In this document: piece after piece, positions 4,396 through 49,161 of the stretch
How positions within the stretch are numbered: position 1 is the stretch's first letter
Layout: every line of letters starts with the position of its first letter
Source: Eledone cirrhosa
Lineage: Eukaryota
DNA length: 64,000 bases
Direction of reading: 5' to 3'
Assembly (NCBI GenBank): GCA_964016885.1
Contig: OZ024761.1
Coordinates: 18,786,001-18,850,000 of the forward strand
Program-made: the position numbers and the translations under genes
The notes under the pieces: model-generated
Told to the model about the DNA's origin: nothing
What the model saw: the letters and a program-made list of their open reading frames with translations, nothing else
Database searches by the model: none

Positions 4396-5838
4396 GATCG
4401 ACTTTCGTCAAATTGGACCGAGGAAACAATGTTTCCGTTGGTCTTTCCAATTGCTAATACTTTCTATCGGTCGCAACTCCAGGTAGAAGGAGCAACGTGA
4501 AATAAAGTGTCTTGCTCAAGGACATAACACATCGCCTGGACCAGGAATCGAACTTACAACCTCGCGATTGTGAATCAAATTCTCTTGCCACTCAGCCACG
4601 TGCCTTCACTTACAATTAATTATAAATATGCATTTTCATATCACAATGCATAATTACATTATAGATAATTGGTGGTCGAATAATCAGTATTAGCTAATTT
4701 GCTTATTTATACATCCTTAGATGATGCTACGAGCTAGAGAGGAGGGGGTAAGGAGAGAACGACCATCAGTCTTGCAGCAAGTGTGTGTGTATGTGTGTGT
4801 CACAAGGAAGAAAGGGGAGATAACCCACACTCGGATGTTTACCTTTCGGCCCGATTCAGGAAAACAGTAATGAGCTGTTTCAAATATTTTCTCTGCTGCT
4901 TAATGGCTTTCTTCATCCAGAGTCTTAGATCGGTGACAGCTTGATCATTCCTGCTTCGTCCAGTGTGTAACTTCCCAGCAGGTTCACCAATAAGTTCCTG
5001 AGAAGAAGCAAAAAAAAATACAAAAAAAAAAAATTGGTATAATGAAAATTAGAACGAGGCTCAACATACAACGAAAGCTACTAATTCAATTTTCATAGTT
5101 TAAGAATATTTAGAGAAGAACAAATGTGATGATATGAACTTACTTTCAATCGGCGTTCATTAGCTGTGTGAATGTCTTCATCATGGGGTTGCAGCTGGAA
5201 TTTCTTTTCCTTCCATTCTATCATAACCTGGAAGACAAAACACAATAACAATTAATGTACAAAGCTGAATTTTCAGCTCTATACTTGAGTACATCATCCT
5301 TTATTCTTATATATCTTCTTTAATCCAGTAACTCCTGAGAGAGACATAGGGGTGCCAAATTGACATACAGCGTTTCTAGGATATTTTAAAATCCTGGCAG
5401 AGATAATCTCTTCTCCAGGCCTAAATACAGCAGATTTCTTCCAGAGAAGGATAGAGAGAGTGGGAAAGAGATTTAGAGGAAGAATCGATCCCAGTACTTG
5501 ACTGGTACTTTTTTTATCGACCTCAAATCGATGAAAGGCAAAGTTGAACTTGGCAGCAGGGAGTGAGAACGGAGCATTCTATCCAACGCTTTAATGACTG
5601 TCAGTTTGCCACCTTGTATATATATATATAAGTATTGAAGTTTCCGTTGAAAATTGAAAAAGTCAGAGGAGTGAAGAGTGCTCTATGTAAGTTACAGAGC
5701 TAAATCTAATGTATAATAAACAATACAATATAATTACCTCATTACCAGAGGTTTCCCAAATAAGACGAATACAAGAAACGTCCACATTCGTTCGTCAGAC
5801 AAGGCAATGAGGTAATTATATTGTATTGTTTATTATAC

Positions 5839-7011: not shown

Positions 7012-7593
7012 GATTGACGACTTGAAAGAAAAGAGTATACAAATTAGTGAACCTGCTGGGAAGTTACACACTGGACGAAGCAACAACGCAGCACGCCATT
7101 TTTCATTCCTATATTTTTTCCCCTCGCCGCGATCTGTCTTTTTCTATCACCTTACTGCTATCCTCTTTCTCTCTCCTTGTACCACTTATTTTCATTCACC
7201 CCGTCTGCTAGTCACACTCTCTCGGCTGGCCTCTTCCTCACACTTTCACTCACTCCCCCTCTCTCACTTCCCCCCGTCTGAACTGTGTGAAATCCTTTTC
7301 TCGCTCACATTTTGCAGGGTATGGACGCGTCTGTCGTCTTTTCGTCATTGATTTGCTAGAACTTAAGTTCACATGTATCATTGACTTGTTTTCTCAATTT
7401 CCTCTCTTTACGTTGCATTACCATTTTGTTTGTTTACATGTCCCTATTTCTCTACCCATTCTTTGTGTCCCAATAACTTATTTTAGTTATTGCTCGCACT
7501 GACTTTGAGGTATCTGGTCTTTAATGCGAAGAAATACTATGATAGTCAGAAGATCACTGATGATGGACAGTCCTGTTTCTTGGTCTATTTTTC

Positions 7594-18771: not shown

Positions 18772-19555
18772 TATATTTATTATTTAAAGTTTGATGAGGG
18801 TAGGGTCCATCGTCGGTTTCGGCGACGATGGACATTCACTGAAGAGTTCGGTCAACTGAACGTCCTAGCATTGCAAATTAAAACAAATATAATAGAAAAA
18901 GAAAAAAATTAGATTGAGAAGAAAGACTGGAGAGGGTAATGGGCTCTGGGCCCAGGGAGCTGTGATATTGGGGCTGCACCCCGCGAACAAGACTGCAAAA
19001 GCATTCCTGCAGACAGTGGCCAGTGACACCTACTGCAACAACCACACCCACACCCCACCTCGCGGGGCTCCTTCCTCAGGCAGCTGTATGGGGTCCAAGG
19101 ACGCCTGAGCTCTCGGCGGTGACTGGTGCGAAGAGGTTTTTTTAATATGTGGAACCTCAGTTCATGAACTTAATTCATTCCTGAAGGCCGTTTGTCACCC
19201 AAAATGTTTGTAAACCGAAACTATTTTTTCCCAGAGAGAAATACAGTGATAGAGAAAGAGAGACTGTGTATGGAAGACAGATAGATATCACCATAGTGAC
19301 ACTTTTCCACTGATACTCCCAGCTTGTCACCAACCGTTGTTGCCAGCTTGTGTGTTCATTAGTCAAGACAGCGTTCGTGAATCCAAACCTTATTTATGTA
19401 AAATTTGAAGTTGGTGAAAATTGTCAAAATATTGACCCAAAATATAAGCTGACCCCACCTCTTCTCCCACCAATTTTTTTTCATTTTTGGTTATGTATTC
19501 CTAGGCTTTATATTTGAGTATATACAGTATGTTGAATTAGGTTTTTAGATACATA

Positions 19556-20347
19556 CTAGCAGAATGGCCCGGCGTTGCTCGGGATTCTAAACATAGATCG
19601 GCATGTTTATCCCTCCTTTCTGAAACAATATTTGCTCTAGGGTTCTTATATATTTGATATATATTTATCCTTATCGAGCCTCGTGAAATAAATATGTTTG
19701 TTTATATTTTGTTATTGTTTATGCATAAATATCTGTACACGAATATATAATTATATATATATATATATTAAAATAACAGATTAAAGTTTAAGCAAAGAAT
19801 CGCTGCTTTCACCCTTAACGGGACCTTCTGAAACTAAAAAAAATCAATCTGTGAACGCAGAAGTAAATATTTCGAAAAACATTGCAACCGAAGGAAAACA
19901 AGAAGACGATACTTTGGCTCGTGAAGACGTTCCCTGGCAATGAACGGAAAATAGCAAAGATAATATCTCAGCAATGAGAACAATGTTTTCATAATGTCGT
20001 AATGCAGACAGCCAGACAGATATTATAAGGGCGCGAGGTTATAGCTATGTATCTATCTAAAGATAGCTGTTTAATTGCTGGTCACTCCATACACCCCTCC
20101 CCTAACTGACCTTCTCTTGTGTCTCTCCACCAGAGCTGTTTGTTAATTGACGGCCAACTAAGAAAGACAGAGAGATTGCTAACCAGCGTCTAATGCAGTC
20201 CCTAGGGCATTGAAAATTTGTAATATTTTTTGATCAAAACACTCACACGACCATAAGTATTACATGTGTAAAGTTTGAAAAAAATTGGTTGGGTGGTTCT
20301 CGAAATTTAGGGGGACAGACAGACAGACAGACATTCTCTGTTTTAGA
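19556..20347 (-). mobile_element. Non-autonomous Helitron-like element with (CTGT)n microsatellite and captured fragments, 57 bp downstream of the YDJC stop
   Basis: Minus strand: host A|TC 5' end at 20347, (CTGT)n near the 5' end, 3' hairpin CCCGAGCAACGCCGGG (19583-19568) 8 nt before CTAG|T (19559-19556); no target-site duplication. Confidence 0.75.
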
Positions 20348-20404
20348 TATAAATATAAACACTTTAAAGCAAACAGTTTTATATTGCAGAACCAGGTGAT
20401 AATT

Positions 20405-22186
20405 TCATGTGATTTTATGTGGAAAAAAGGTTTTAAAAGATGTCAGATTTATGTTATTTTTTTCATAAAAGTTCATCGAATTCATCTCTTTGAGAATGTT
20501 CATTTCATGTTGTCGATCCTTTGACTGGGAGAAATCATCAGGACCTTCCCCACACCCTCCGACACTGTTTGTTACATAACCAGGATGGACCATCAGCTCA
20601 CAAAACCATGGGCTCCTTCCAGCCGCAGTCTCTGCATTCTTCAACTGTTTATCTTTCAATGAGACCCGCACTGTATGGAATCGTTCCTCCAGGTTTCTGG
20701 CACTCATGTTGTATCCCATTGTACTCAAACCCAAGAATTCATCTGGAAAACTGGTAAAGAAACCACAGTGAAATATTCATTATTACTTCTTAACATACTG
20801 TCATGATTTAGCAGAAAATATCTAAAAACAAGTCTGTTAATTCATATGGTTATAGTATCATTATTAGTGGACTGGCCTTTCTGAGTTCAAATCCCGCCGA
20901 GGTTGACTTTGCCTTTCATCCTTACGGGGTCGATAAAATAAAGTACCAGTAATGTACTGGGTAATTGCTGGCCTTGTGCCAAAGGTAGAAACAATTATTA
21001 GTGGACTGGCAGTATCGGTAGAGGGTCGGACGCCATGCTTTCCACCATAGTTACGTCCCTTTACAATCTGAGTTCAAATCCCGCCGAGGTTGACTTTGCC
21101 TTTCATCCTTACGGGGTCGATAAAATGAAGTACCAGTAATGCACTGGCTGGGTATTTGCTGGCCTTGTGCCTAAAGTAGAAACAATTATTATGAGGGTCA
21201 GCTGAAAAGTTCATATACTGACCAAGACACTCTCATAATAATTGTTTCTACTTTTGGCACAAGGCCAGCAATTACCCCAGTGCATTACTGGTACTTTATT
21301 TTACCCCCCCCCCCATCCTCTCGTAAGGATGAAAGGTAAAGTTAACTGCAGTGCAGGGAGATTTGAACTCAGATCATAAAGGGTCATAACTCTATGCTGC
21401 AAAGCCTGTGTCTGAGTGTCTGATGCTTTACCGATACTGCCAAACCACCGCCCTCGCATAATAATTGTTTCTACTTTTGGCACAAGGCCAGCAATTACCC
21501 CAGTGTATTACTGGTACTTTATTTTATCGACCCCGTAAGGATGAAAGGCAAAGTTGACCTCGGCGGGATTCGAACTCAGAATGACAAGGGCTGTGTGTGA
21601 AAGCATAGTGTCCGACCCTCTACCGATACTGCCAATCCACCGCCCTACATACATACGAATATAATACCAGTCTAGTACTGAGGTCGATTCTTGCTCTCTC
21701 TCTCTCTCCCTCTCTCTGTCCTTTTCTGGAAGAAATCTGCTGTATTCATACCTGGGGAGGAGGTGGACTCTGTCAGGTTTAAAAATGCCCTAGAAACACT
21801 ATGTCAATACAGCACCCCTATGACTTCCTGCATGCAATTGAGAGGGATGACCCCACCACCACCACATAACAAAAATACTTACTAAATACCATTTTTCAGG
21901 CAGATGTCTTGAGATTGTAAGGAATCTCTGATTACACTTTGAAAGAAAGATGATGTCTCTGATAACCAGGAACAGGAAGTGAGATGTTTTTCATGGGGAA
22001 TTCTGGTGATGTTTATCTCATTAGAAGCCATTTGGGGAGCCAGAATCTTCATAACATCTATAAAAATCATAACCAAAAAAAAAAAAAAAAAAAAAAAAAA
22101 TTTAGAAATCAATGTAATTTTATTGAAAACATTCGATGTGTCAGGCTTTAGTGTCATTCTTCAGGAGTACAAAAATACAGACATGA

Positions 22187-22234
<48 letters not shown>

Positions 22235-25200
22235 TATTAAATAAAATACATGGTAAACTGGAGTATACCTTCCTCGTAAGTTGATCTTATTTTAAATAAT
22301 AATAATGAAATGATTGTGTACAGTGCTCAGGTGCACTACAACTCATCAAAGGTGTATGTATAGTACATAGAATAATATACAAACGTCAGGAAAGTGAACA
22401 GTGTATGAGTCATGATATACATGCGTGCATGTGTATGTAGTGGGGATATCAGGTGTAGTGTTGGCGAATTTCAAGAAGCATGGAGGTTTTAAAAGATGCA
22501 GTGTCTCGACAGCTAACAACTGATGCAGGTAGTTTGTTCCATGGAGGTTTTAAAGGATGCAGTGTCTCGACAGCTAACAACTGATGCAGGTAGTTTGTTC
22601 CATGGAGGTTTTAAAGGATGCAGTGTCTCGACAGCTAACAACTGATGCAGGTAGTTTGTTCCATGGAGGTTTTAAAGGATGCAGTGTCTCGACAGCTAAC
22701 AACTGATGCAGGTAGTTTGTTCCATGGAGGTTTTAAAGGATGCAGTGTCTCGACAGCTAACAACTGATGCAGGTAGTTTGTTCCATGGAGGTTTTAAAGG
22801 ATGCAGTGTCTCGACAGCTAACAACTGATGCAGGTAGTTTGTTCCATGGAGGTTTTAAAGGATGCAGTGTCTCGACAGCTAACAACTGATGCAGGTAGTT
22901 TGTTCCATGGAGGTTTTAAAGGATGCAGTGTCTCGACAGCTAACAACTGATGCAGGTAGTTTGTTCCATGGAGGTTTTAAAGGATGCAGTGTCTCGACAG
23001 CTAACAACTGATGCAGGTAGTTTGTTCCATGGAGGTTTTAAAGGATCCAGTGTCTCGACAGCTAACAACTGATGCAGGTAGTTTGTCCATGGAGGTTTTA
23101 AAGGATGCAATGTCTCGACAGCTAACAACTGATGCAGGTAGTTTGTTCCATGGAGGTTTTAAAGGATGCAGTGTCTCGACAGCTAACAACTGATGCAGGT
23201 AGTTTGTTCCATGGAGGTGTTAAAGGTTGCAGTGTCTTGACAGCTAACAACTGATGCAGGGAGTTTGTTCCATGGAGGTTTTATAGGATCCAGTGTCTTG
23301 ACAGCTAACAACTGATGCAGGGAGTTTGTTCCATGGAGGTTTTAAAGGATCCAGTGTCTTGACAGCTAACAACTGATGCAGGGAGTTTGTTCCATGGAGG
23401 TTTTAAAGGATGCAGAGTCTTGGCATCTAACAACTGATGCAGGGAGTTTGTTCCATGCTTCAGCATATCTGAGCGTGAAAAAATGTTTCCGAAAGTCATG
23501 GGAACTGTGCTGTTTTCTGACTTTGTGGGCATGTCCACGGGTGTTAGACACATGGAATTCAAAAAGTTGCTCAGGGTTGTTGTTGGCAAGATGGTTAATA
23601 ATTTTGTGGGTATTTATCAAGTCAGTTGCCAGACGTCGGAGCTTCAATGTATCCATGCCCAGGGAAGCAAAGCGTTCAGCGTATGGTTGTTCATCAGCAA
23701 TCAAAAAGTCACTGATGGAGCAACATAAAATTAAATGTCTTTGCTGAAGGACCACATTGCTGGGAATTGGGCTTGTGAGCTTAGAGTCATAAACCAAACA
23801 CATTAACCACTTAGCCACAATGAACAGAAAGTGTTGTATTCTCACCTGGTATGATGTGAATATGTTGATGTCCATCAATGTGGACTGGTTTCTGACCAGT
23901 GAGACTCCCGAATATTCTAATTTGGTGTCCAATCTCCTCAGAAATCTACAGAACACGCCGGAAAAGATGTCAGTAGAGCATCAAAAAATAAAATAAAATA
24001 AATAAACTGATGAGGTGGAATAATGACGAAATACATTACTATCATCATCAGTATCATCAACATCATCATCACCACCACCATCACTATCAACATCATCATC
24101 ATTTTATAGTCTACTGGGTGCATTCTATTGTGACACCAGCAATTCCACTTTACAGCATGGCCTGGGTGCTTTTTTATCGTGGCACCAGCACTATCACTTT
24201 ACAGCATGGCTTGGGTGCTTTTTATTGTGGCACCAGCACTATCACTTTACAGCATGGCCTGGGTGCTTTTTATTGTGGCACCAGCACTATCACTTTACAG
24301 CATGGCTTGGGTGCTTTTTATTGTGGCACCAGCACTATCACTTTACAGCATGGCTTGGGTGCTTTTTATTGTGGCACCAGCACTATCACTTTACAGCATG
24401 GCTTGGGTGCTTTTTATTGTGGCACCAGCACTATCACTTTACAGCATGGCCTGGGTGCTTTTTATTGTGGCACCAGCACTATCACTTTACAGCATGGCTT
24501 GGGTGCTTTTTATTGTGGCACCAGCAATTCCACTTTACAGCACGGCCTGGGTGCTTTTTATTGTGACACCAGCAATTCCACTTTACAGCATGGATTGGGT
24601 GCTTTTTATTGTGACACCAGCAATTCCACTTTACAGCACGGCCTGGGTGCTTTTTATTGTGGCACCAGCAATTCCACTTTACAGCATGGCCTGGGTGCTT
24701 TTTATTGTGACACCAGCAATTCCACTTTACAGCACGGCCTGGGTGCTTTTTATTGTGGCACCAGCAATTCCACTTTACAGCATGGCCTGGGTGCTTTTTA
24801 TTGTGACACCAGCAATTCCACTTTACAGCATGGCTTGGGTGCTTTTTATTGTGGCACCAACTCTACCACTTTGCAGTATGGGCTGGGTGCATTTTATTGT
24901 GGCACCAGCACTATCACTTTACAGCATGGCCTAGGTGCTTTTTATTGTGGCACCAACTCTACCACTTTGCAGTATGGGCTGGGTGCATTTTATTGTGGCA
25001 CCAGCACTATCACTTTACAGCATGGCCTAGGTGCTTTTTATTGTGGCACCAACTCTACCACTTTGCAGTATGGGCTGGGTGCATTTTATTGTGGCACCAG
25101 CACTATCACTTTACAGCATGGCCTGGGTGCTTTTTATTGTGGCACCAACTCTACCACTTTGCAGTATGGGCTGGGTGCATTTTATTGTTGCATGAACACT

Positions 25201-26851
25201 ACTACTTTACAGCATTTTTTGAGTGCTTTTTATCACATACAAATAAATATGTATGTTGGAACATCTATTTGAAGATTTTAAGGTAAACTTTAACATAAAC
25301 AAGGCATCCTTACTTCTTCAAAATCTATTTGTCCACTGGAAATGGCTTCTCGAAATCCAAACTTGCCCCGAAAGAATCCTTTTTCATTTGTTAGTGTGTC
25401 GTACGTGGAGCCAATAGGGCAGCCTTCTGTTAAGTTCAGGTGAAGACCTAAAAGTTAGAGAAAGTTAGTGTCTTAGTGATGGGCTTATTAGGAACCAAAT
25501 CACCCCTATTGTATTACTGGTATTGATTTTATTGATGCTCTGTAAGTGTTAGGAAGGGTTTGCCTGTGACACTGATTTATTGAAATACACCCAGTACACT
25601 CTGTAAAGTAGTTGGTGTTAGGAAAGGCATCCAGCAGTAGAAACCAGGCCATGGGCTGTGCTACAGATTTATTAAAATGCACCCACTACACTCTGTAAAG
25701 TGGTTGGTGTTAGGAAAAGCATCCAGCAGTAGAAACCAGGTCATTGGCTGTGACACTGATTTATTAAAATGCACCCAATGCACTCTGTAAAGTGGTTGGT
25801 GTTATACATATATATGTAGAAACCAGGACAAAAACCAAGAGATTTGACTATGCCATGGATCTAAGACAATAGTAACTTAGTTTTTTTTTAAAAATAATAG
25901 AATACACCCAGTGCACTCTGTAAATTGGTTAGTGATAGGAAAGGCATCCAGCTGTTGAAATCAGAACCTATGTAAACGAGATTTCACAACTCCGGCCTAT
26001 CAGGGAGGACAGTAACTTCTTAGTTTTTTTAATGACAAAATGTACCCAGTACACTCTGTAAAGTTATTAGTGATGGGAAGAGCATCCAGCTGTAGAAACC
26101 GTGCTAAAAAAGTGTTCAAAAGACTCATTAGTTTTATCAAGGTCACACCCCCCTGTCTTAGTGATAGTGACACAATAAAATGCACCTAGTACACTCTGTA
26201 AAGTCTTTGGTGATAGGAAGGACACCCAGCTGTAGAACCCATGCTCAAACCAGAACATATGTAAGCAGGATTTAACCGCTTTGGCTTGCCTGGGAGCACA
26301 GTAACCCTGATTAAGTACTGACTTGGTTTGTGATGACCTATCCAACCCATACTGGCATGGAAAAACATGTTAACTGATGATGATGACGATGATGGTAATG
26401 ATGATGATACGGGAAAGGGGAAACAAAAGCAGAGCTACTGAAACGTGTTCAACAGCATACTGTCTTCCCAATGGTGCAAGCAAGGTGTTAGTTGTACCTT
26501 ATCATGGTGCCTATTCCTAATTAGGCGTACGGAGCCAGCCAGAAACGTACAAATAAGTAAGTGCCTTGCCTCCAAGTGGAATACAGTATAATGCAGATGT
26601 CATTGTGCTACATACCGAGCGTCTCGCCACAAGCGATTCTTCAGACAACATTGAAAGATCGTTGGTAGTGAGCTATTCGGTAGAAAGCGATGGAATGACT
26701 TACGTGTGTGTGTGTGTGTGTAGGACTAGCGTCCGAAACGTTAAGACCCTCTTCCTGTTATTTCAAGCGTTAAACTAATATATTCCTTCCATATACTGTA
26801 CCGATTGTGTTGTCATTTCTGTTTACCTTTTAAATACATATACACACACAC

Positions 26852-26901
<50 letters not shown>

Positions 26902-27380
26902 GGTTGAAGTTCACGTGTATCTCGCTCTCTCTCTATATATACATACATACACGGGTTTTACACACACATACATCAACCAGTAAATTACAAATACAATAGA
27001 CAATTTAAAGATTGTTCCACCACCACCACCACCACCACCATATTATAATAAACAAATGTCAAATTGTTAAAATGAAATTAAAATATACGAGTATTGTTTT
27101 AACTTGTTTCTGTCAAACCAGGAAGTAGTAATAATAATAAAAAAAAAAACAATAAACTTTAGCGACTTATTAATGTACCGAGCGATATTTCATCAGAACG
27201 TGTTGTCACAACAGACTTAGCTGAGACAGCATTGACTAAAAGAGAGCAACTTGTCACAGATCCGCTGTCTATACACTCGACAATGCCTTCGTCTCTCGTC
27301 TGGCTGTAGCCGACATCGTCTGCATTGATGATCAGATTAAAAGCCGATGTTTTCCTTTGTGAAATGTTTAAGTCCATCAT
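20405..27380 (-). CDS. YDJC: YdjC-family carbohydrate deacetylase, complete. Exons: 27380-27179, 25447-25314, 23945-23846, 22057-21883, 20750-20405
   Basis: Motifs LIINADDVGYSQTRDEGI, GLHLNLTEGCP, GFFRGKFGFR, PVHIDGHQHIHIIP, ELMVHPGY, GGCGEGPDDFSQSKDRQHEM; GT-AG introns with matching phases (1,0,1,2). Confidence 0.95.
22290..23710 (-). mobile_element. 3' fragment of a CR1/L2-type LINE in YDJC intron 3
   Basis: YAERFASLGMDTLKLRRLATDLINTHKII...TRGHAHKVRK...RKHFFTLRYAEAWNKLPASVV is a typical CR1-group ORF2 C-terminus; ends in a short (ATT)n-like tail. Confidence 0.8.
22479..23455. repeat. 61-bp tandem array, ~16 copies, amplified from the LINE 3' end
   Basis: Unit catggaggttttaaaggatgcagtgtctcgacagctaacaactgatgcaggtagtttgttc; near-identical copies, no spacers. 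Confidence 0.95.
24105..25230. repeat. 48-bp minisatellite, ~23 copies, related to the SINE 3' region
   Basis: Unit gtggcaccagcactatcactttacagcatggcttgggtgctttttatt, with variant blocks; produces the spurious 420-aa ORF. Confidence 0.95.
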
Positions 27381-28904
27381 ATTGTTTTTTTTGTAATATA
27401 AAACCAGTACTGAGTTGCCTCCCTTAAGAACAGATTTCGATTTTGATTTTTCCTTTCTCTCTCTTAACTATTTTACTACTAATCCAGACCCAAAATCAGC
27501 TCTAGTTCGCTCTGTGTAAAATACCACCCGTTTTAAAGGGTTCCTGTTTAAACCATTTTGTTAACAACCCTGCCCTAATCAGCTTTGGTTCTCTCTGAAA
27601 AATTTCGACCCAATTTAAAGAGGTGGGGTGTACTATTTAACTCTTTTGCGACCAACCCAGTCCAAACCGCCACTGCTTCTATGAAACACATGCACCTATT
27701 TTAAAGGGTTCTTATTTAACCCTTTTGCTACCAACCGGGCCCGAACCATCACTGCTTCTATGAAACCAAACCCACCCATTTTAAAGGGTTCGTATTTAAC
27801 CCTTTGCTTCTAACCCATCTATGGTTCCATAAAACAAAACCACTCGCAAGTTCATTATCTAACGATCGTTTTCCTCAAACTTTTAAAGAGTTGCCATATA
27901 AATTAAAATATTCCAACATAATTTTATATAAGAACCGTATGTTAAGTTACTATCTAATTGATAATGTTAGTAAACCCTTCAGCTATTTTCCTTAATTAAC
28001 TGTAATGTCGGAGACGTTTGGTGGGGCTGGGACGCTGACAGCGAATTTCTTACCGAGGCGTCAGGTGATGCCCGTGAGGGTGCTTGGTTGTTTCAATGTC
28101 TTAGCCTCACCATTACCCGACCTTACCGAGGTGATGCGCGCGAGGGTGCTTGGTTGTTTCAATGTCTTAGCCTCACCATTACCCGACCTTACGTGAGGGT
28201 GCTTAGTTGTTTCAGTGTCTTAGCCTCGCCATCACCCGACCTTACCGAGGTGTCAGGTTGTGCCTGTGAGGGTGCTTGGTTGTTTCAGCATCTGAGGCTC
28301 GCCAACACCCGGCATATAGTTACGCCCCCTTTACGTTCTGAGATCAAATCCCGCTGAAGTTAGCTTTGCCTTTCATCCTTGCGGGGTCAATAAAATAAAG
28401 TACCAGTAACGCACTGAGGTAGGTCGGTTTAATCCCCCCCCCCCCCCAAAAAAAAGTATTGGGCTTGTGCCTGAATCGGTGGATTGGCAGTATCGGTAGA
28501 GGGTCGGACGCTATGCTTTGACGCACAGAGTTACGGCCCTTGCCTGTCTGAGTTCAAATCCCGCTGAGGTTAACTTTGCCTTTCATCCTTACGGGGTCGA
28601 TAAAATAAAGTACCAGTAATGCACTGGGTAATTGCTGGCCTTGTGCCAAAAGTAGAAACAATTATTACGGGGTCGATAAAATAAAGTACCAGTAATGCAC
28701 TGATTAATTGCTGGCCTTGTGCCAAAAAGTAGAAACAATTATTAGAGATGCAATAATATTACAGATATCCCACATATATATACATATATACAACTTATTC
28801 AGAAATATACAATGAAAAACTTATTTTATTAGCGATCATTTTAAAAATTTCACCCGACTTTGGTTTACTCAACGTTCGAGTCATGTAACCGTATAATCAG
28901 AACA

Positions 28905-29000
28905 ATTTGATTGGCTGAAATTCTGATTGGCTGTTCTCGATTTCTGATTGGCTGTTCTCATGTTCAAAATTAAGCGCGGCCATAACTCTTTAATTCAAAT
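28905..29000 (+). promoter_or_regulatory. Cell-cycle (G2/M)-type promoter of the kinesin-6 gene: three inverted CCAAT boxes plus CHR/CDE-like elements
   Basis: GATTGGCTG with ATTGG at 28910, 28926 and 28947; TTCAAA (reverse CHR TTTGAA) at 28963 and 28994, next to GCGCGG; lies just upstream of a candidate non-coding first exon. Confidence 0.65.
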
Positions 29001-29189
29001 GTCATAAATACGCGTACACTGTTTGGTTTCTGTTTTTAAAAAATTCAAAACGATTCTTCGCTTTTTTACATTCAAATTTTGACAAATTTTAAACGATTTA
29101 TTTTTAAACGATTTATTTTAAACAACTAAATTCGTCGTTTCTATAAAGAATTGTTTTCACTAAATTTCTTGGTCTGTTGAAGTTTTTAC
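29000..29189 (+). other. Probable non-coding first exon of the kinesin-6 gene (start approximate)
   Basis: Consensus donor AC|GTAAGT at 29190 downstream of the CCAAT/CHR cluster; the next exon (acceptor ending 31860) carries the ATG at 31871. Confidence 0.5.
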
Positions 29190-31435
29190 GTAAGTAACTC
29201 CTAAAGTTTTTATCGTCGTTAATATTTTTCTAATAATATAACATATGAACCAAATGTTTTTAAAACTTAACATTTCTAACCTAATATTATTTTCTAATGC
29301 CTTCCTTGTTATAATACCGAAATATATCTTTATATACATTTATATATATATATTTTATACTCTATATGTATTTATACTCTAACTAAATATGTAAGTGACA
29401 TCATAAAGAAAATGTTTTGCTGTAACGAAAAAAAAATGTATCCGTCTATCTACCTCTCATCTGTAATTAATAATGCAATATATATATAAATAAATCAATC
29501 AAAATGTATCTATTTATACTTACAAATACTTTGTTAGGTTAATGTTTATTTCTGTAACGAAATAGATATTTAAAAACTTTTATCTTGTCTGATGTCGATT
29601 TCTTGGTCAACACCGAACTATAGAGTATATAGTAGTAATCATATTTCGTTAGGGGAATTCGAAGACTATATCAACATGCAATAGTTTTTGACTCGACAGA
29701 TGTTTCCGTGTTGGTTAAACGTGGGTACAATGAAGGTAATTCCAGGAGTGTTTATATATACATACACGTGCTAGGCTAACGATATATTTGAATGGCTAAG
29801 AGATTTCGTAAGGAAAACGCATTTTGTTTTTTGTCAGTCTATTGTTTCATATTTGACTGTTTGGACAAAGATTAAACTGAAACAGGGAAATAGATAATAA
29901 TAATGATAATAATTAATTATTATTACTACTACAACATCCTTACAGGGTCGATAAAATAAAGTACCGGACTGGGGTCGATTTATTTGGCCTTTTCTTTCCC
30001 TAAAATTGTTGGCCTTGTGCCTGATTCAGAAACCATTATTATAGGCTCAATAAAATAAAGTACCAGTAACGCACTGGGGTCGGTCGATTTAATCGATTTT
30101 CTCTTCCTCCAAAATTGTTGATTTTGTGTCTAAATGAGAAACCATTATTATGGGGTCGATAAAATAAATGTTACTAATATGACCACTTTATAGTCTAGAC
30201 TGGGTACTTTCCGTTGTTACCAATACTTTATAGGGTAGACTGGGTACTTTTTGTTGTGTCACCAATATAACCACCTTGTAGGGTGGACTGGGTTAGATTT
30301 GTTTTGGAAATGGTAATTTGATATCTTCCTCCCTACCTCTCTCTTTTTTAAGGTGTCGCCAAGATGTTCAGTGGTCAAGCAGCGACTATATACCTATGTA
30401 TCTATTTTAAAACAACAAAACCAATTTGCTATCCATTTACCCACCTATCTATATACCTTTCTATCTACCTACCTACATGTCAAGTAGACAGACAGTAATA
30501 TATAAATAGGTAGGTAGATAGATATCTATATACCTACCTATTTATATATTACTGTCTGTCTACTTGACTGACAATCTATATTTACCAATGTAACCATATT
30601 TGGACAGCACAAATCCCAATAGCAATCTAAAGATGTGTTTCTTTATTAGCCACAGGGGCACAAAAGAAGGGGACAAATACAAAGGGGGAAGTTTACATAC
30701 AATAAAAACTGAATAGATAGATAGGAAGTCATCATAATTTAGTGATATATATTTGATAGCGATAAAAAAAAAATGGAAGTAAATTATTGTAATTGATTTA
30801 AATGAATATAAAATCAATTAAGATGACTGTCAAAGTGACAAGAGGGAGAACGTTGAGGAAAATAAAGGATTGAAGTATGTTTAAATAAAATATTGTAATC
30901 AAGGAATTATATTTTTACTATGAAGCCTATCATTTTTGACAGATACTATGTTAGTATCATCATCATTTTACATCTGCTTTTCCCTGCTTGCAAGGGTGGG
31001 ATGGGAACTGATTCTGGCTTGGTTTCTACAGCTGGATGCCCTTCCTAACACCAACCTCATTTATAGTGAGTGCTGGGTGCTTTTTGTGCCGTGGCACCTC
31101 CACGACCACTTTGCAGTGGAATGATAGATACCCCAGTCTCTATCATCTCATTTCTACAGCTGAGTAAACTGGAGCAATGTGAAATAAAGTGTCTTGCTCA
31201 AGGAAACAACACATCACCCGCTCTGTGTTGTTTCCTTGAGCAAGACACTTTATTTTACATTGCTCCTCCTTCCTGGATAGTGTTAGCAATTGGAAAGAAC
31301 TCCACTCCACTTGTTAAGCGAATGGGGTCTGGGATCTTGTTGGCTAGTGGAATTCTAGTGCTGCAGTGGCCCTTAAATTAAACTGCAAATTGTAATGTGT
31401 CTTATGTGTTATCAAATATGGGATATATATATATA

Positions 31436-31477
<42 letters not shown>

Positions 31478-31870
31478 GGAAGAGGCTATGTAGCCGGTAA
31501 GAGTGTCAGCTTGAGTTAAGACAATTTGAAATGTTTTCCACCATCAATTGTTAAAAAAACAAGTTAAAATCATTTAGTCATCCATTCGTGTTATACTTTA
31601 GTTACATACACACACATCTACATGTAAATACACAAACAGATACAGACAACAGAACTACAAACGTACATACACACATACATCTACTGAAACATTCATATAC
31701 ACGCATCTATTGAAACATTCATATACACACATCTATGTAATGATTGAAGAAGGAAGGGGCTGGTGAAACACTATAGCGATGTGTGTATTGCGTCCTTTAG
31801 GGTTTACTGGCTATGTAACATATTTGATATATAATCTGTATCTCCTGCATATATTAACAGAAACTACAAT

Positions 31871-34800
31871 ATGTCAAGTGGTGAAACCATTCCGGCAGAA
31901 GAGGAAGAGAAAATTGCAGATGGCTTGCGGAAAAACTTGCTGGATGACTTCTATCCGGAATCAACAGAGAACTTTGAGAAGTTAAAGGTTTACCTGAGGG
32001 TTCGACCATTCACTGCTGAAGAGAAGCAGAATAAACATCAGGTAGAGTTTATCTTTCTTGATTAACCTCTTGTGATACCAAACTGCTTGAAACCACCACC
32101 AGTTCTATGATAGAAAGCTGTTTGTTTTAAGGTTTTTATATTTGTTTGAAAGTCCTGATTATACACAGAATATGTAAAAGTGGGTTTGTCATTAATACAC
32201 CCAAATAAACCCCCTATGAGATATAACCTCATTGGAGGCCAGCTAAACCTACATAGGTGTTAGCTGTAACATGACAAGACTGGGGTCCCTATCATTAAAG
32301 CCCCAGGAAACCTGTGAGATACAACATTATAGGTCAACTAAACCTACATAGATGTTAGCTGTAACAACAGGATTGGAGACCCTATCATTAAAATACCCAA
32401 GAAACCTCCTATCAGATACAACCTTGTACTCGGCCAGCTAAATCTACAGAGCTGTAACAGGACTGGACTGGAGCCCTTGTCATAAACCCCAGGAAACCTA
32501 TCAGATACAACCTTGTACTAGGACAGCTAAATCTACAGAGCTGTGAGCTGTAACAGTAGAACAGGAAACCTACGAGATACAGATTTGTACTAGGCCAGTA
32601 CATTTGTACAGAGCTGTGAACTGTAAATTTAATTTTTCATTATTTCCAGTGTTTCAAGCACTAAAAATAACAATGAAAAGGGTCAGTGTTACCTCTCACC
32701 CTTCTAACTTTTATTTGCTTGTCTATCAAAGTTGTTTAACCCTTTAGCATTTACATTATTCTACATTTGCTATTGTATTTTCACAGTAAACACTTTATCT
32801 CACTTAATACAGAATCTATGTGATGCTGATGTTTATTTTGAGAACAATAACTTAACATAAGTATGAGGAGCTGGTTTAAATGCTAAAGGGTTAGTTGATG
32901 ACCAAATGATCAGTGCATACACCCTTATATTTTCTAGTGTCCACTGTCATCTGTCCTTTTGTCTATCCACCAGAGCTGTTTATTAATTGGTCAAATGGTC
33001 CCTGCATCCTTACTCCACCTTATATTTTTTGTCTGTCCAACATAGCTGTTTAATTGCTGGTCACTCCATACACCCCCTCCCCTAACTGACCTTCTCTTGT
33101 GTCTCTCCACCAGAGCTGTTTGTTAATTGACGGCCAACTGATCACTGCGTATGCCCCGAAAGACTCCAACACCTTTAAAAGCAGCACCTACACAGCCAAC
33201 AAGAACATCCAGTCGTTCAAGTTCTCCAGGATATTTGAGGAGCAGACCCAACAGAGTGAATTTTACAGTGAAACATGTGAGGGCCTTGTGAAAAACTTCC
33301 TCAGCGGACAGAACTGCCTCGTATTTGCCTACGGAGTAACCAACTCTGGCAAGACTTATACAGTACAAGGTATACATTCTTTTTCTATATTATTATATAT
33401 CATCATCATCATCATCATTTAACGTCCATCTTCCACGCTAGCATGGGTTGGACGGCTTTGCCGCACTTGAGGAAATATTGGTCGGGTAACCATGTCTCGC
33501 TCGTTCTGGCGGATTTTTTACGGCTGGATGCCCTTCTTAACCACATTTACAGTGCCTTTTTACCGCATCTCCTACACAACCACTTTACAGTTAGAGGATG
33601 GAGTAGGGGTGTGGGGTGTATATTGGGTTATATATATACAGGTAAAATTTCGTTATAAAGAATTTTTCAGTATAACAAATTTTTCTTTCAATTCCCGAGG
33701 TAATAAACAAACAAACGCTCGATTTCTTTTGGTTGATCTCGTTGTAAAGAATTTTTCATTACAATAAATTTTTTTTTATATCCCGTAAATTTTGATATAA
33801 TAGAATTTTATTGTATGAGTGTTGGTGTATTTGTGTGTGTGTTTGTGGAGGCACATGGCTTAGTGGTTAGAGCATTGGCCTTGCAATCGAAAGGTTGTGA
33901 GTTCAATTCTCAGACCGGGTGATGTGTTGTTTCCTTGAGCAAGACACTTTATTTCACATTGCTCCAGTTTACTCAGCTGTAGAAATGAGATGATAGGGAT
34001 TGGGGTCCCTATCATTCCACTGCAAAGTGGTCGTGGAGGTGCCACGGCAAAAAAGCACCCAGCACTCATTGTGAATGAGGTTGGTGTTAGGAAGGGCATC
34101 CAGCTGTAGAAATCAAGCCAGAATCGGTTCCCGTCCCACCCTTGCAAGCAGGGAAAAGCGGACGTAAAATGATGATGATGATAATGTGTGTTTGTGTAAT
34201 GATAATTAAATGTCTGACTAAATGCCAAAGTTTCTATAATTCATTGTTTTGAAAACTACTGCCATTGTGTAATAATTATTGTAGGAACTCCGAAGGAACC
34301 AGGTATATTACCCCGTACCCTGGAGACCATCTTCAATCATGTCTCAGGCAGATTATGGCATGGGCTCGACCTTAAGCCCAAGATGTACCTCGATGTGATC
34401 AAATTATCTCCGAAGATTGAATCTGAAGAGAAACAGAAGAAAGAGGAACTATTACGAGTAGCTTCCTTTGAGGTCAGTTCTTTTCTGAAATATAATTATT
34501 TATTACTAGATGAAGGCGACAGCATCTTCCTCTTTCTGTCTATTCTACAACATTTAGTAAGATGGCCAACCAGATGACCTTTAGTAATTCCAGTAATTAG
34601 AGCGAATACTGTGTAGAAAGAATGTTACTGTCTTTTTTTTTTTTTCAGTGGAATTCCATCAACCGTGGCCCTCAACAAAATCCAAGCACGACTTACATTT
34701 GAGTGCCACTCACACACAAACATTCTCACTCTCCATCTATGTATATCTCTTGGCCCTCTCCCCTCTCTATATATAGATGTGTGTGTCTATATATATATAT

Positions 34801-37473: not shown

Positions 37474-37510
<37 letters not shown>

Positions 37511-40500
37511 TGGCATTGGCCTTGAGAGATATATATATATATATATGGTAGAGCATTGGCCTTGCAATCGAAAGGTCGTGAGTTCAATTCTCAGACCGAG
37601 TGATGTGTTGTTTCCTTGTGTAAGACACTTTATTTCACATTGCTCCAGTTTACTCAGCTGTAAAAATGAGATGATAGGGACTGGGGTCCCTATCATTCCA
37701 CTGCAAAGTGGTCGTGGAGGTGCCACGGCAAAAAAAGCACCCAGCACTCACTGTAAATGAGGTTGGTGTTAGGAAGGGCATCCAGCTGTAGAAACCAAGC
37801 CAGAATCAGTTCCCGTCCCACCCTTGCAAGCAGGGAAAAGCGGACATAAAATGATGATGATGATAATGATGAATCTGAAATCATCAATCCCACTTACATA
37901 ATATATCTCTCACCAAATTCAATTCATTTCTTTCTCTTCCTATTGTAGCCATTGTATATTTAATATAAAACTGTTACAAGTTGTTAACCGGAAGAATCCG
38001 AGTGTTGCTAAAGTCAGCATGTGAGTACTCTTACATTTCTCTTACTGCTACCATTACTCTTGCTCTCTCTCTCTCCTCTCTCTCCCTCTCCCTCTCTCCT
38101 CTCTCTGTATTCTGTTCCTGGTTTCAGTCATTAGACAATGCTGTGTTAACTTGTTTTATATATGGCGTCTGCCTCAGGAATTCTGATTAGCTGACAAGAT
38201 CTGTGTCAGATGTCTGTGATTACTGTGTATGGGCAGTGTCTGTTGACAGTTGTGGTTGATGCCAATGTATTTGGTGTCTCCTGTTGATATCTGTGAGGTA
38301 TTTGTGATTCGTATGAGTTTGCCCCTGGCCCCCAAAACTTTTGGCCTTCTGCCTAAATCAGAAACCGTTATTATTATTTTTGAAGGACGTTGGATTGGCA
38401 GTATCGGTAGAGCGTCGGACACCATGCTTTGCAGCATAGAGTTACGACCCTTTACGTTCTGCGTTCAAATCCCGCTGAGGTTAGCTTTGCCTTTCATCCA
38501 TTTAAGGTTGATAAAATAAAGTACCAGTATTGCACTGGGGTCGATTTAATCGACTTACCCCCTCCTCACCAAATTGCTGGCCTTGTGCCTAAAATAGAAA
38601 CAATTATTAGTTTGGTGGATTGGCAGTATCGTGAGAGGGTCGGACGCCATGCTTTGCAGCATAGTATGGCCCTTTGCATTCTTAGTTTCATTCTTACAGG
38701 GTTGATAAAATAAAGCACCAGTAGTTCACTGGCGTCATTGCTGGCCTTGTGCCAAAAGTAGAAACAGTTATTATTATTTTTACATTATTTATATAGGGTG
38801 GTGGATTGGCAGTATCGTTAGAGGGTCGGACGCCATGCTTTCTAGCATAGTTACGTCCCTTTATGATCTGAGTTCAAATTCCGCCGAGGTTGACTTTGCC
38901 TTTCATCCTTACGGAGTCGATAAAATAAAGTACCAGTAATGTACTGGGTATTTGCTGGCCTTGTGCCTAAAGTAGAAACAATTATTTTTACATTATTTAA
39001 ACTTTTTGTTGTTTGTTTTGTTTTTGTTTTGTTTAGGTTGTCACTGTGTGACTTGGCTGGCAGTGAACGGACCTGTAAAACCCATTCTACTGGAGACCGA
39101 CTGAAAGAGGCCGGCAACATCAACACCTCGCTGTTAACTCTCGGTCGATGTATTGAAACTATGAGAATTAATCAGATAAGAAAGTGAGTTGAGGCAAAAG
39201 TAGGACAGGAACCTTTACTAGCAGGGAAAGTGGATATTGAATGATTGTGGGGTAGATGTTGGGGTTGTATATATATTTATACATAGGGATTGTATTGTCC
39301 AGTTACTGTAGGTTCACCAGAGTGAGCACTTGATGTGTAGTTTCCAGTTGGTATATTAGTGTTGTACTAAGCAGAGTGTAATACTAATAAAAATAAAAAG
39401 GGCAAAGTGTTAGATCTTCTTTACGTTTATTGAGGTTTGATGCGCGTTTCGTGATTGATCAGCTCAAGGCTCGATCTGTATTGATCTGGCCTGACTCTGG
39501 ATTCAAAAGCTTGTTGAGCTTCTGTTATGGTAATGTCATTATATATAGACATACATATTTCCAACCCTTGCAACAGGGAACGTCGATGTTAAAACGATTT
39601 GTGTGTGTGTGTGTGCATATATATATAGGAGGCACATGGCTTAGTGGTTAGAGCATTGGCCTTGCAATCGAAAGGTTGTTAGTTCAATTCTCAGACCGGG
39701 TGATGTGGTGTTGTTTCCTTGAGCAAGACACTTTATTTCACATTGCTCCAGTTTACTCAGCTGTAGAAATGAGATGTTAGGGACTGGGGTCCCTATCATT
39801 CCACTGCAAAGTGGTCGTGGAGGTGCCACGGCAAAAAAAGCACCCAGCACTCACTGTAAAGTGGTCGTGGAGGTGCCACGGCAAAAAAGCACCCAGTACC
39901 CACTGTAAATGAGGTTGGTGTTAGGAAGGGCATCCAGCTGTAGAAATCGAGCCAGAATCAGTTCCCGTCCCACCCTTGCAAGCAGGGAAAAGCGGATGTA
40001 AATATTCAAAAAAAAAAAAAAATATCACTGTTTAATGTCCATTTTTCCATGCTAGCATGGGTTAGCAAGATGTATATATATGTATATACACCTGTTATGT
40101 GTCGTCAGTGTTTAATATAGAGGTGTGAGGTATTGTGTTAATGTGTGTGTGTATAGTATTAGTTGTGTGTATTATCAGTCTTTGTATAGTATTGTCTGGT
40201 TAAACTTGAGTATTTATTTATTTATATATACATTTTTTTGTAGGGACTTTCCGAGACTGATCCCTTACCGGAATAGTAAGTTAACCCGTCTATTCCAGGG
40301 TTTCTTCAATGGTCACGGCGAGGCCATAATGATTGTGAACGTAAACAAATGTAGCAAGGTGTTTGATGAGACCCTCCAGGTATTCAAGTTCTCCGCCATT
40401 GCCAAGCAGATAGTAATCCAGAAGGACCCACTGAAGGCACCGGCAGTAAACATATCTCCTGTCCTCCCTCTTCGACCCTTATCTAACCTTGAGCGGGTTT

Positions 40501-41200
40501 CAATACCTTGGGCTGAAGACGGTAATTAATTTTCACCACCTTTGCTTATATTTCAGTCCCCCTCCCCTCGCACTATCTGAACCCTCACCTTCCATGTTTA
40601 GAAAACAACTGGGTGACCCCTGTGGGAATAATTCTGCAGTTTAATTAGAATCAATCACAAAGTATTAAAGATCAATACAAATATATCATCATCACCGTTT
40701 TATGTCCGTTCTTCCACGCTAGCATGGGTTAGACGGGTTGTCCTGTTGTGGGCAGTGTCCGGTCGGCTAACCTTGTCTTGCTCATATGGGAACTGATTCT
40801 GGCTTGATTTCTACAGCTGGATGCCCTTCCTAACACCAACCTCATTTACAGTGTGGGCTGAGTGCTCTTTTGCTGTGGGAGGGTGTGGGGGCATATTGTC
40901 TATATGCTTCAGCTTCGGCTTGTACCCATGGGAGGGGTCGGGTCTTCTGTATTACTGCGTCACGCCAGAGGTCACGGTTGTGTGTCATCGCCTTTGAGAG
41001 GTGTAATTGGGTAACGTCGGCTTTTATCACCTCATCCCAAGTCTTCTTGGGTCTCCCCACTCCGCGGTTTCCATCGACTTCTAGTGCATTGCACCTTTTT
41101 ATGCAGCTGTCACCCTTCATATGCATCACATGTCCATACCAACGCAACCGCCTCTCCTGCACACAGCATTTGATTCCTCTTATGCTCAGTCTCTTTCTCA

Positions 41201-41243
<43 letters not shown>

Positions 41244-43688
41244 TATATGGTGGCTGCCAACTCGTTTTCGAGTACGGCCACTACTTTATATCCATGTAAG
41301 AGAACCCCTACCGATACGCTGAACAAGTGTGACTTTTTAGTCCAGCCAACGACTTGAAAACTGGTACAAACACTACACTTGTGACAATTATTGACACAGT
41401 GCTGGGCCCATGGTACCATGTGACGACAAGTGCAGAGAGATCTCCAGATATAAAGCAATGCCTGTGCCGTGAAGCTTTTATAGTGAGCAAAGGCACTGCA
41501 CAAAGCCAGTCCCACTCTCTTAACCAAGATGATATTTACCAAAAAGAAGAACAAGTCAACATCATTGGATACCATCAGGGTTGCAGGTGTTATATCAGAG
41601 TTTTCCTTCTCCTAGAATTCTGCCTTGACAAAGGCTAAGGGGTCATCTCTCCCGGTGATTTTGGATGGCCATTGACTCTTAAGAGCTCCTTTTCCCTTTG
41701 ACAGGTTTTGTTTTTAGTCCTGAAGGATGTCCAAAGTCACCCTCCTCACCAAGAAACCTTGGTGGGGTTGCCAGTTTAGTCGCCAACGACCCGACCATGA
41801 GACAGGTTGTACTGGTATATATATATATATGTATATATACATGCACATACAGTTCCACATTGTAAATGTGGTTGGTTTTAGGAAGGATATCCAGCCAAAT
41901 TTATAGTCCTTGCTGGAACAAGGTGCAACGTGGCCAGCATTGCTTCCTGGCATGTACGACTCGTCTAACTCGTGCAAACTTGCAAGAATTGACACTAAAT
42001 AGAAATTATTATAATGATGATATATATATATATATATATATATACAATTCCACACTGTAGACGTGGTTGGTGTTAGGAAGGGCATCCAGCTGTAAAATAA
42101 CAGCCTCCAGCCCCAAACAGTTCCGTTGGAGCAAAGTGCGGCGTGGCCAACTGTCTTATGTGGACAACCCATCTAAACCATGCAAGCATGGAAAATAGAC
42201 ATTAACCCTTTAGCATTTAAACCGGCCACATCTGGCCAGAATTTTCTCACCTCTTTCTGTTCAAACCAGCTGTAACCAGCTGCTCATACTTATGTTAAGG
42301 TATTGTTTTCAAAATAAATGATATGAAAATCACATAGATTCGATATTATGTGAGATAAAGTATTTACTGTGAAAATATAATAGTAAATATAGAGTAATGT
42401 AAATGGTAAAGGGTTAAACTGTGATGATGATGACCTCTTTCTCTCTGTTCCAGCTACATACAATGAACATGTCTCCATGGTAGATGAAACTTTTGATGAT
42501 GAACTTACTGACAGGGAGAAGGTGAATGTTTGCCTCTTTTTTTCTCTTTATTTTGAGTGTGTATACAGTGAATGTGTATATTATGTATATTTAGTGTGTA
42601 TATTGGGTATATTTAGTGTGTATAGTCTATATTTAATTATACATAAGTCTATATAGAGATATGGTAACGAAAGGGTTAAGAAGTGTGACTTATACACAAG
42701 TCTATATGGTATTTTGTTGTTGTCCGGTGTAACTTATACACAAGTCTATATGTAGATATGATAATGAAAGGGTTAAGGAGTGGTGTCACTTATACACAAG
42801 TCTATATGGTGAGGTGTGACTTATACACAAGTTTATATGGTGAGGTGTGACTTATACACAAGTCTATATGGTGACGTGTAACTTATACACAAGTCTGTAT
42901 GGTATTTTATTCTTGTCAGGGCTTGCTGAAAATCATTGAACAGTGCAAGACGAAACTCAATTGGTTGAAGGAAATGTTGGATAAGGAGAAGATGGATCGG
43001 ATACTGGACGAGATTAAAATCCGAGAGGAAGTGACCAAGGAGATGATGAAGCAGTTCGTCATTATAGAGAAGAGCTACAGGTGCGTGGTCAGAACTTCAA
43101 CTCACCCCACTCCCCTTTTTGGTTTTGATTTATTTTATAATGTTAGTTAATGAACACACAAGCCAATAACAACAGTTGCCAACAAGCTGGGGATGTCTTG
43201 GTTTAAATACAACAGATTTCTTCTCGAGAAGGATAGAGAGAGTGAAAAAGATATGATACAATTGAACCTTAGTTCATATATATACAGTTGAATCTTAGTT
43301 TATATATATGCAGTTGAACCTTGGTTTATATATATGCAGTTGAACCTTGGTTTATATATATATAGTTGAACCTTGGTTTATATATATATAGTTGAACCTT
43401 AGTTTATAGATATACAGTTGAACCTTGGTTTATATATATATATAGTTGAACCTTAGTTCATATATATACAGTTGAACCTTGGTTTATATATACAGTTGAA
43501 CCTTGGTTTATATATATATAGTTGAACCTTAGTTTATATATATGCAGTTGAACCTTGGTTCATAAATATACAATTGAACCTTGGTTCATAAATATACAAT
43601 TGAACCTTGGTTCATAAATATACAATTGAACCTTGGTTCATATATATATACAGTTGAACCTTGGTTCCTATATACAGTTAAACCTTGG

Positions 43689-48173: not shown

Positions 48174-48205
<32 letters not shown>

Positions 48206-49095
48206 CGAGGTGGGTCAGAAAAGTTCCAGGACTGATGTCACAAAAGATTTATTTCAAACCCAAACTTCACACTAAGAGTTTTCTCTTTCAAAGTAATCCC
48301 CTGGAGTCTAATGCACTTTTCCATCCTTTTCTGCCACGCTTGCATGCACTCCTGGAAGGATTCTTCCGGGATCCTCCGCAGTTCCGTCGTCTCGGCCTTT
48401 TTGATGTCATCCACATCTTCAAAACGGGTCCCTTCCGGGTCGTACTCGAAGAGCCATGACTTATCACCGGTGATGTCTGTCCCTCGCAAGTCTGATTCGG
48501 TTGAGGATGTCCTGGCACACTTGCATGCGTCGACTCTTCTGGTCATCGTTCAGCAGTTTTGGCACCATCTTTGTGCAGACTTTCCGTATGTCCAAATAAA
48601 TCTTCAGTGAGAATCTTCCAGACACTGTCCCGATTCATGCCCATCTCATTTGCCATCAGTCGAACAGTCAGCCGACGATTGCTACGCACCATCTGCCTGA
48701 CGCGCTCAACGTTGACCTCAGTCCTGGTTGTTGAGGGCCTTCCGCTCCTGGGGTCATCTTCCACGTCCTTGCGTCCTTCTTTAAACCTCTTGCACCACTC
48801 AAAAACAACACGTGAGCGTGACATCGTTTCATCTCCATACACTTGCTGCAGCAATCCCAGTGCTTCTGACGGAGTTTTCAAGTTTGTTCGTTGCTCTGTG
48901 CTCATTGCTTGACAACCTGAAACAGGGGACATGTATATAAAATTATAAAGAAAAAAGTTTGATCGCTGCAGAGAGCTAAGATTACAGTTACATACTCCAG
49001 GGGGATTACTTTGAAGGAGAAAACTCTTAGTGTGAGGTTTGGGTTTGAAATAAATCTTTTATGACATCAGTCCTGGAACTTTCCTGACACACCTC

Positions 49096-49161
<66 letters not shown>

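Follow-up and report, generated by a model that had tools for sequence, protein, structure and literature searches.

A kinesin splice-acceptor copy within a Helitron behind YDJC in Eledone cirrhosa, probably a break-repair patch from the neighbouring gene

How does a fragment of one gene's splice site come to lie inside a transposable element behind another gene, and does it act from there? The question is raised by a window of 64,000 nucleotides from Eledone cirrhosa (contig OZ024761.1), the whole stretch of DNA that was analysed. Within it, positions 20063-20159 match positions 33042-33139 with no substitutions and one gap in a run of C (4 C against 5 C), an alignment with an E value of 2e-44 in the 64-kb window and far beyond chance. 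The first-pass annotation had described the two segments as identical save for one C, and had read the second as 72 nt of intron plus 26 nt of coding exon from a kinesin some 13 kb away. Both statements were borne out: the distance is 12,979 bases, and the 72 intron and 26 exon bases belong to a KIF20A-like kinesin whose exon encodes the PF00225 motor. The same annotation had proposed a recent local capture by a Helitron, lying in a YDJC transcript and possibly able to mask splicing or guide ADAR. We consider it likely that the 97-base acceptor copy was instead pasted once into an older, resident Helitron during repair of a DNA break, with the neighbouring gene as template, and that it likely has no function. 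The features on which the argument rests are collected in Table 1.

Table 1. Features of the window discussed in the text, with their coordinates, strand and basis.
Feature	Position	Strand	Basis and remarks
Older dispersed repeat split by the Helitron	19528..20440 (about 19528-19555 and 20356-20440)	.	41 matches elsewhere; 9/9 copies tested align across the join
Non-autonomous Helitron copy, large family	19556..20355	-	800 bases, insert included; ends from sisters; host repeat restored on removal
Helitron 3′ end, imperfect hairpin then CTAG	19556..19583	-	predicted DNA fold -6.2 kcal/mol, a value without shuffle control
Inserted kinesin copy	20063..20159	+	branch-point region, pyrimidine tract, acceptor, 26 exon bases; shared junction letters included; unshared core about 20067-20156
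ATTAAA hexamer in insert, candidate poly(A) signal	20070..20075	-	335 bases past the YDJC stop
Helitron 5′ end, family TC mutated to TA here	20346..20355	-	23/29 sisters
YDJC last coding exon	20405..20750	-	PF04794; spliced X4 contig joins 20750 to 21883 over a GT-AG intron; stop in older host repeat
YDJC upstream coding exons (about 27380-27177, 25430-25311, 23945-23844, 22059-21883)	21883..27380	-	tblastn with protein P0001
Candidate shared promoter between the gene starts, three ATTGG words	28837..29043	.	sequence; elsewhere only in three partial kinesin copies; putative promoter role
Kinesin first coding exon, ATG at 31871, acceptor AG before it	31861..32041	+	sequence, ORF; no Pfam match
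Older decayed duplicate of the same kinesin acceptor, in intron	32956..32989	+	31/34 identical to insert
Most likely donor	33042..33139	+	last 72 intron bases and first 26 exon bases of kinesin
Kinesin-6 (KIF20A-like) motor exon, second coding exon	33114..33369	+	PF00225, E 2e-17; KIF20A best of 29 PDB sequences; four genome copies

The duplicated segment and its candidate donors

Three two-copy duplicates of at least 40 bases at 95% identity were found within the window, the insert and donor pair among them. The other two (4952-4991 with 7043-7082, and 48182-48307 with 48994-49120) are likewise short and near-identical; both are inverted, with the copies 2 kb and 0.7 kb apart. When the insert was searched against the whole 3.0 Gb genome, 12 matches were returned at 5 places. 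The first-pass annotation had expected two hits genome-wide if the capture was local, and this expectation failed, for beyond the local gene there are three partial copies of the kinesin 5′ half, two on contig C1636 (from 254465 onward on the plus strand and from 377694 downward on the minus strand) and one on C18 (from 5902650 downward on the minus strand). Their counterpart in the window runs from 28837 to about 37500-41800. They comprise the upstream stretch and the 5′ exons, are 91-97% alike in introns, all lack window positions 29044-29772 and carry, in the first coding exon, the same two frame-preserving deletions of 6 and 12 bases. The two most extensive copies terminate in an inverted duplication or in satellite. 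All three retain the candidate promoter and could be expressed.

In run X2 the kinesin exon contig has a depth of 44 against 11.8 for single-copy YDJC, a 3.7-fold difference, and the partial copies are therefore real. We also considered that they might be haplotigs, an idea ruled out by the 3.7-fold depth, by an intron divergence of 3-5% in two of the four stretches compared, and by the two shared deletions.

Several further observations concern these copies. The same kinesin acceptor has been duplicated repeatedly, as a decayed copy in the local intron (window 32956-33129) and as arrays of 2-4 complete acceptors in the three partial copies (L002, L003, L005). In all three partial copies an internal piece (568 bases) of a decayed coding region of Helitron type lies some 450 bases upstream of the DNA derived from the kinesin (L086:4443-5010 and equivalents), which hints that a Helitron may have had a role in the partial duplication of the kinesin; no ends of the insert-carrying Helitron family were found near these copies. 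This decayed Helitron-like family (L107-L123) gave 1680 first-look candidates, the best of them 97-98% alike, and is found in clusters on C18, C20, C23, C24 and C25, where many members lie together and some stand in tandem with an 8.2-kb period on C23. One member (L108) contains a Pif1 2B domain by Pfam. Its coding pieces are presumably Rep-like, and 3 of 5 such fragments had no Pfam match.

Which unit served as donor is a separate matter. In the partial copies the acceptor forms a 120-base tandem unit, present in 4, 4 and 2 copies. Four units bear exon sequence, the local one among them, and a single difference separates each of these from the insert, whose 4-C run is present in 3 of the 10 distant units and absent from the local unit; thus the sequence does not name the donor. 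An attempt to name it by diagnostic sites failed, the four candidate units being equally close to the insert. Run X5 (organism B, a small share) holds one tandem unit with 4 C and has no cover on the YDJC exon.

The same kind of repair patch could accordingly have been copied from one of the three partial copies elsewhere, or from reverse-transcribed unspliced RNA. Such a reading draws on there being four real candidate donors, on a 4-C form that within this genome is confined to distant copies and recurs in organism B, and on human class 2 insertions, which are described as coming from distant and often transcribed donors (PMC5110952). Against it, a distant donor would have had to land 13 kb from its own parent gene by chance in 3.0 Gb, an event that we would take to be far less likely than a single slip in a C run; it is for this reason that the neighbour is favoured. 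As for an RNA template, a piece spanning intron and exon needs no RNA step, and the insert has neither a poly(A) tail nor a target duplication. We regard a donor other than the neighbouring gene as unlikely, and the neighbouring kinesin, judged by its proximity, as the most likely source.

The carrier Helitron and the insertion junctions

The carrier is a non-autonomous Helitron. Searches for its family gave 5584 and 2042 first-look candidates. In each search 40 were scored and 29 sister loci retrieved; the 58 sisters examined are therefore the best-scoring among thousands of candidates. Helitrons insert between A and T without target duplication, and excising 19556-20355 rebuilds the older host repeat at A|T, again with no target duplication. 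The joined flanks align without gaps over the join in all 9 host-repeat copies tested, in one of them by only 3 bases on the left. With the end set at 20347, in contrast, the three host-repeat copies tested align only rightwards from the join. CTAG stands at 19556-19559, and A|CTAG is found on the plus strand in 34 of the 42 sisters (of 58) that could be anchored at the 3′ end. At the other end, 23 of 29 sisters begin with TC at the position corresponding to window 20355; in this copy that TC has mutated to TA, and the TC at 20347 is internal, 8 bases inside the family end. Of the termini that had first been assigned, the CTAG and hairpin end at 19556 stands, whereas the 5′ end moves from 20347 to 20355, which is 49 and not 57 nt past the YDJC stop. 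The stop codon and last few codons of YDJC themselves sit in the old dispersed repeat (window 20356-20440), and the O. bimaculoides YDJC protein ends about 5 residues earlier than that of the window.

The alignment of sister copies that had been proposed as a check was carried out, and the insert is absent from all 58. The empty site could be seen in 57, of which 31 have the identical 16 letters. Family sequence flanks the insert on both sides, so that it is internal, about 200 bases from the Helitron 5′ end, and its left junction occurs once in the 3.0 Gb genome with at most one mismatch allowed. Between 0 and 7 host bases were replaced. At the right junction 3 bases are common to host and donor, and random joins give at least 3 in 5.6% of trials (chance 0.056). 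The left junction has a microhomology of 1-4 bases: 1-2 with the usual host sequence, and 4 if the host carried a variant that 2 of 57 sisters show. Under random joins the joint chance of both microhomologies is 0.026 to 0.001. Among the other full-length sisters none of 21 carries a unique insert; one of the 21 has a stretch unshared among the 58 sisters, and this proved to be a common repeat (at least 40 perfect matches, 574 candidates).

Compared with the family majority the element differs at 20 of 464 aligned sites, and compared with the local donor the insert differs at 0 of 97, a disparity with P = 0.014 under one clock. By this count the insert looks younger than the element, although the argument is weakened because the acceptor unit is nearly unchanged among kinesin copies whose nearby introns differ by 3-5%.

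These features bear on whether the Helitron acquired the fragment by transposing, either through end bypass or through a template switch followed by a jump, during rolling-circle transposition. The carrier is a Helitron by its family ends and its insertion site, and the uptake of host DNA is known for these elements (PMC6544945). End bypass as set out in that source, however, adds DNA at the 3′ end, by the donor, whereas this insert lies near the opposite end with family sequence on both sides, and end-bypass capture was ruled against on that ground. Moreover, there is one copy, it looks younger than the element and its probable donor is nearby. Capture in transposition is in our judgement very unlikely. 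We favour repair in place, since the fragment lies within the element, occurs once, looks younger than its carrier and has microhomology at its joins. The earlier proposal of a recent, local Helitron capture thus stands in so far as the acquisition was recent, single and most likely local, but not in so far as the element took up the DNA by transposing.

A chimera of the assembly or of a single read was weighed as well, for neither junction is bridged by an X1 or X2 contig among the 8 pieces listed per run, and the junctions rest on the assembly. The same contigs also miss plain element body, for example at 19950-19967, and the hole is therefore not specific to the insert. The insert also cleanly replaces the empty site of the family and matches none of the four donors exactly, and we hold an artefact to be highly improbable. 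In the RAD runs X6-X8 the insert has one read or none, and no junction is among the reads listed; these runs are uninformative on polymorphism.

The preferred reading, repair from the neighbouring gene, can be laid out as a sequence of events. A non-autonomous Helitron entered the older repeat behind YDJC at A|T. A break inside it would later have been repaired by template switching to the kinesin gene 13 kb away and back: one end may have primed on the kinesin intron through the 1-4 matching bases, about 90 bases would have been copied, and 3 matching bases would then have let the new strand join up with the other end, at a cost of 0-7 host bases. In this assembly the chimeric Helitron did not spread. 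Its antisense orientation to YDJC would be a one-in-two accident.

YDJC transcription and the antisense possibility

The placement of YDJC on the minus strand in the first-pass annotation was supported by PF04794 and by five coding exons recovered with tblastn; the stop is a TGA at 20405-20407 and the best database match is from Octopus bimaculoides (65%). Tandem arrays of about 61 and 48 bases occupy parts of its introns (22479-23457 and 24115-25233). YDJC and the kinesin face away from one 2.4-4.5 kb stretch, in which the ATTGG words are presumably reverse CCAAT-like. In run X4 a 696-base contig joins 20750 to 21883 at a depth of 11.7 and, as it is spliced over a GT-AG intron, YDJC is expressed in that run.

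A YDJC 3′ UTR would touch the insert at a length of 246 bases and span it entirely at 342. The X4 contig starts 11 bases beyond the stop codon, at 20394, with no overlapping neighbour contig, while X1 and X2 DNA contigs run to 20357. The stretch 20022-20237 has no X4 contig at 97%, and the depth at 20093 is 0 in both mappings. These are the contigs of one run, which cannot place an RNA end, and the DNA contigs also miss parts of the element and both junctions, so the X4 data lean against a YDJC 3′ UTR that reaches the insert, but weakly. The earlier statement that the copy lies in a YDJC transcript was accordingly not confirmed, and the mature YDJC mRNA probably ends before the insert. Whatever poly(A) site is used, nascent RNA that reads through may still extend across the tract.

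The insert does contain the sole AATAAA or ATTAAA from the YDJC stop to 19141, that is, within 1.2 kb. The chance of such a hexamer in a shuffled insert is 0.09, and the weaker hexamers TATAAA and AATATA lie 25-27 bases past the stop.

The rival reading is a working antisense RNA, in which YDJC transcripts would cross the insert, possibly end at its ATTAAA, pair with the kinesin pre-mRNA and mask the acceptor or attract ADAR. The orientation fits, a UTR of the lengths given above would reach or cover the insert, the hexamer is in place and the two genes diverge from a common stretch. A duplex of -196 kcal/mol is predicted, as is expected of any 97-base match. Elsewhere, editing from sense-antisense pairing was reported in 8 of 17 metazoans surveyed (PMC9989829), and in three species at least 30% of Pack-TIRs are in chimeric transcripts, one of them in a 3′ UTR (PMC8277862). 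However, the X4 contigs stop short of the insert, weaker hexamers are available much closer to the stop codon, the ATTAAA has the chance of 0.09 given above, and the insert is young and single and thus bears no sign of selection. The examples given in the available part of PMC9989829 come moreover from a ctenophore, a sponge, a worm and a sea squirt, and not from an octopus. We consider a working antisense quite unlikely, and for the splice-masking or ADAR-guide role that had been suggested we found no positive evidence, the X4 contigs leaning as described. In its boldest form one repair accident would have supplied YDJC with a poly(A) signal together with an antisense arm that matches perfectly over 97 bases. 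An isoform ending past the ATTAAA would pair with the branch point and acceptor of the KIF20A-like gene, which is transcribed from the common intergenic stretch, and would so tune the splicing or editing of a cell-division motor; this too is improbable. If a YDJC transcript did end in the insert, an antisense splice or editing guide would have been caught at its birth, in a group of animals known for heavy RNA editing.

Comparison with known insertions

Single-copy Pack-TIRs have been described as products of gap filling that needs no transposition (Tan et al. 2021, PMC8277862). According to that source 56.9% of 281 cases lie within 15 kb of the parent, the microhomology has a median of 2 bases, gaps are small and the median length is 224 bases. 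Its examples include an exon of ERP44 taken with flanking intron into the GTF2H5 3′ UTR, and a capture between neighbouring worm genes. The insert studied here resembles them in being single-copy, internal and short, with a small gap and short microhomology (PMC8277862). The kinesin, at 12,979 bases, also falls under 15 kb, but by sequence the three distant copies are no further from the insert. Unlike a Pack-TIR, the carrier has Helitron ends, no terminal inverted repeats and no target duplication, and it is not a member of that class. It differs further in that the insert is known from DNA alone, and in being antisense to the parent's acceptor, an arrangement not described in the available part of PMC8277862.

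Insect Hel1 Helitrons contain internal filler DNA of host origin, with junction matches of 2-13 bases to the source locus (Han et al. 2019, PMC6544945). The likeness lies in internal host DNA within a small Helitron and in the short junction matches; however, the filled Hel1 elements were amplified according to that source, whereas this insert has remained a lone copy close to its donor. Class 2 templated insertion polymorphisms and microhomology-mediated templated insertions (PMC5110952, PMC8421209) are similar in patching a break with a microdeletion and microhomology, without target duplication or poly(A), and those are heritable. They differ in having been described in humans, with TSIP donors that are distant and thought to be RNA-derived. 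Sense-antisense duplexes that attract ADAR (PMC9989829) would be comparable as a candidate intermolecular duplex between the transcripts of neighbouring genes; those described there arise from overlapping transcription at one locus, whereas here there is a pasted copy and no insert transcript in the X4 contigs. A narrow literature search found no report of a Helitron-borne antisense to the splice site of its parent gene.

By analogy, the insert appears to work like a further case of the known gap-filling process, in a Helitron carrier. Read in this way it provides one mollusc Helitron case of a process known from TIR elements and from Helitrons of insects. It would also illustrate that a Helitron can contain host DNA without having captured it in transposition, at a locus where donor, empty site and junctions are all visible.
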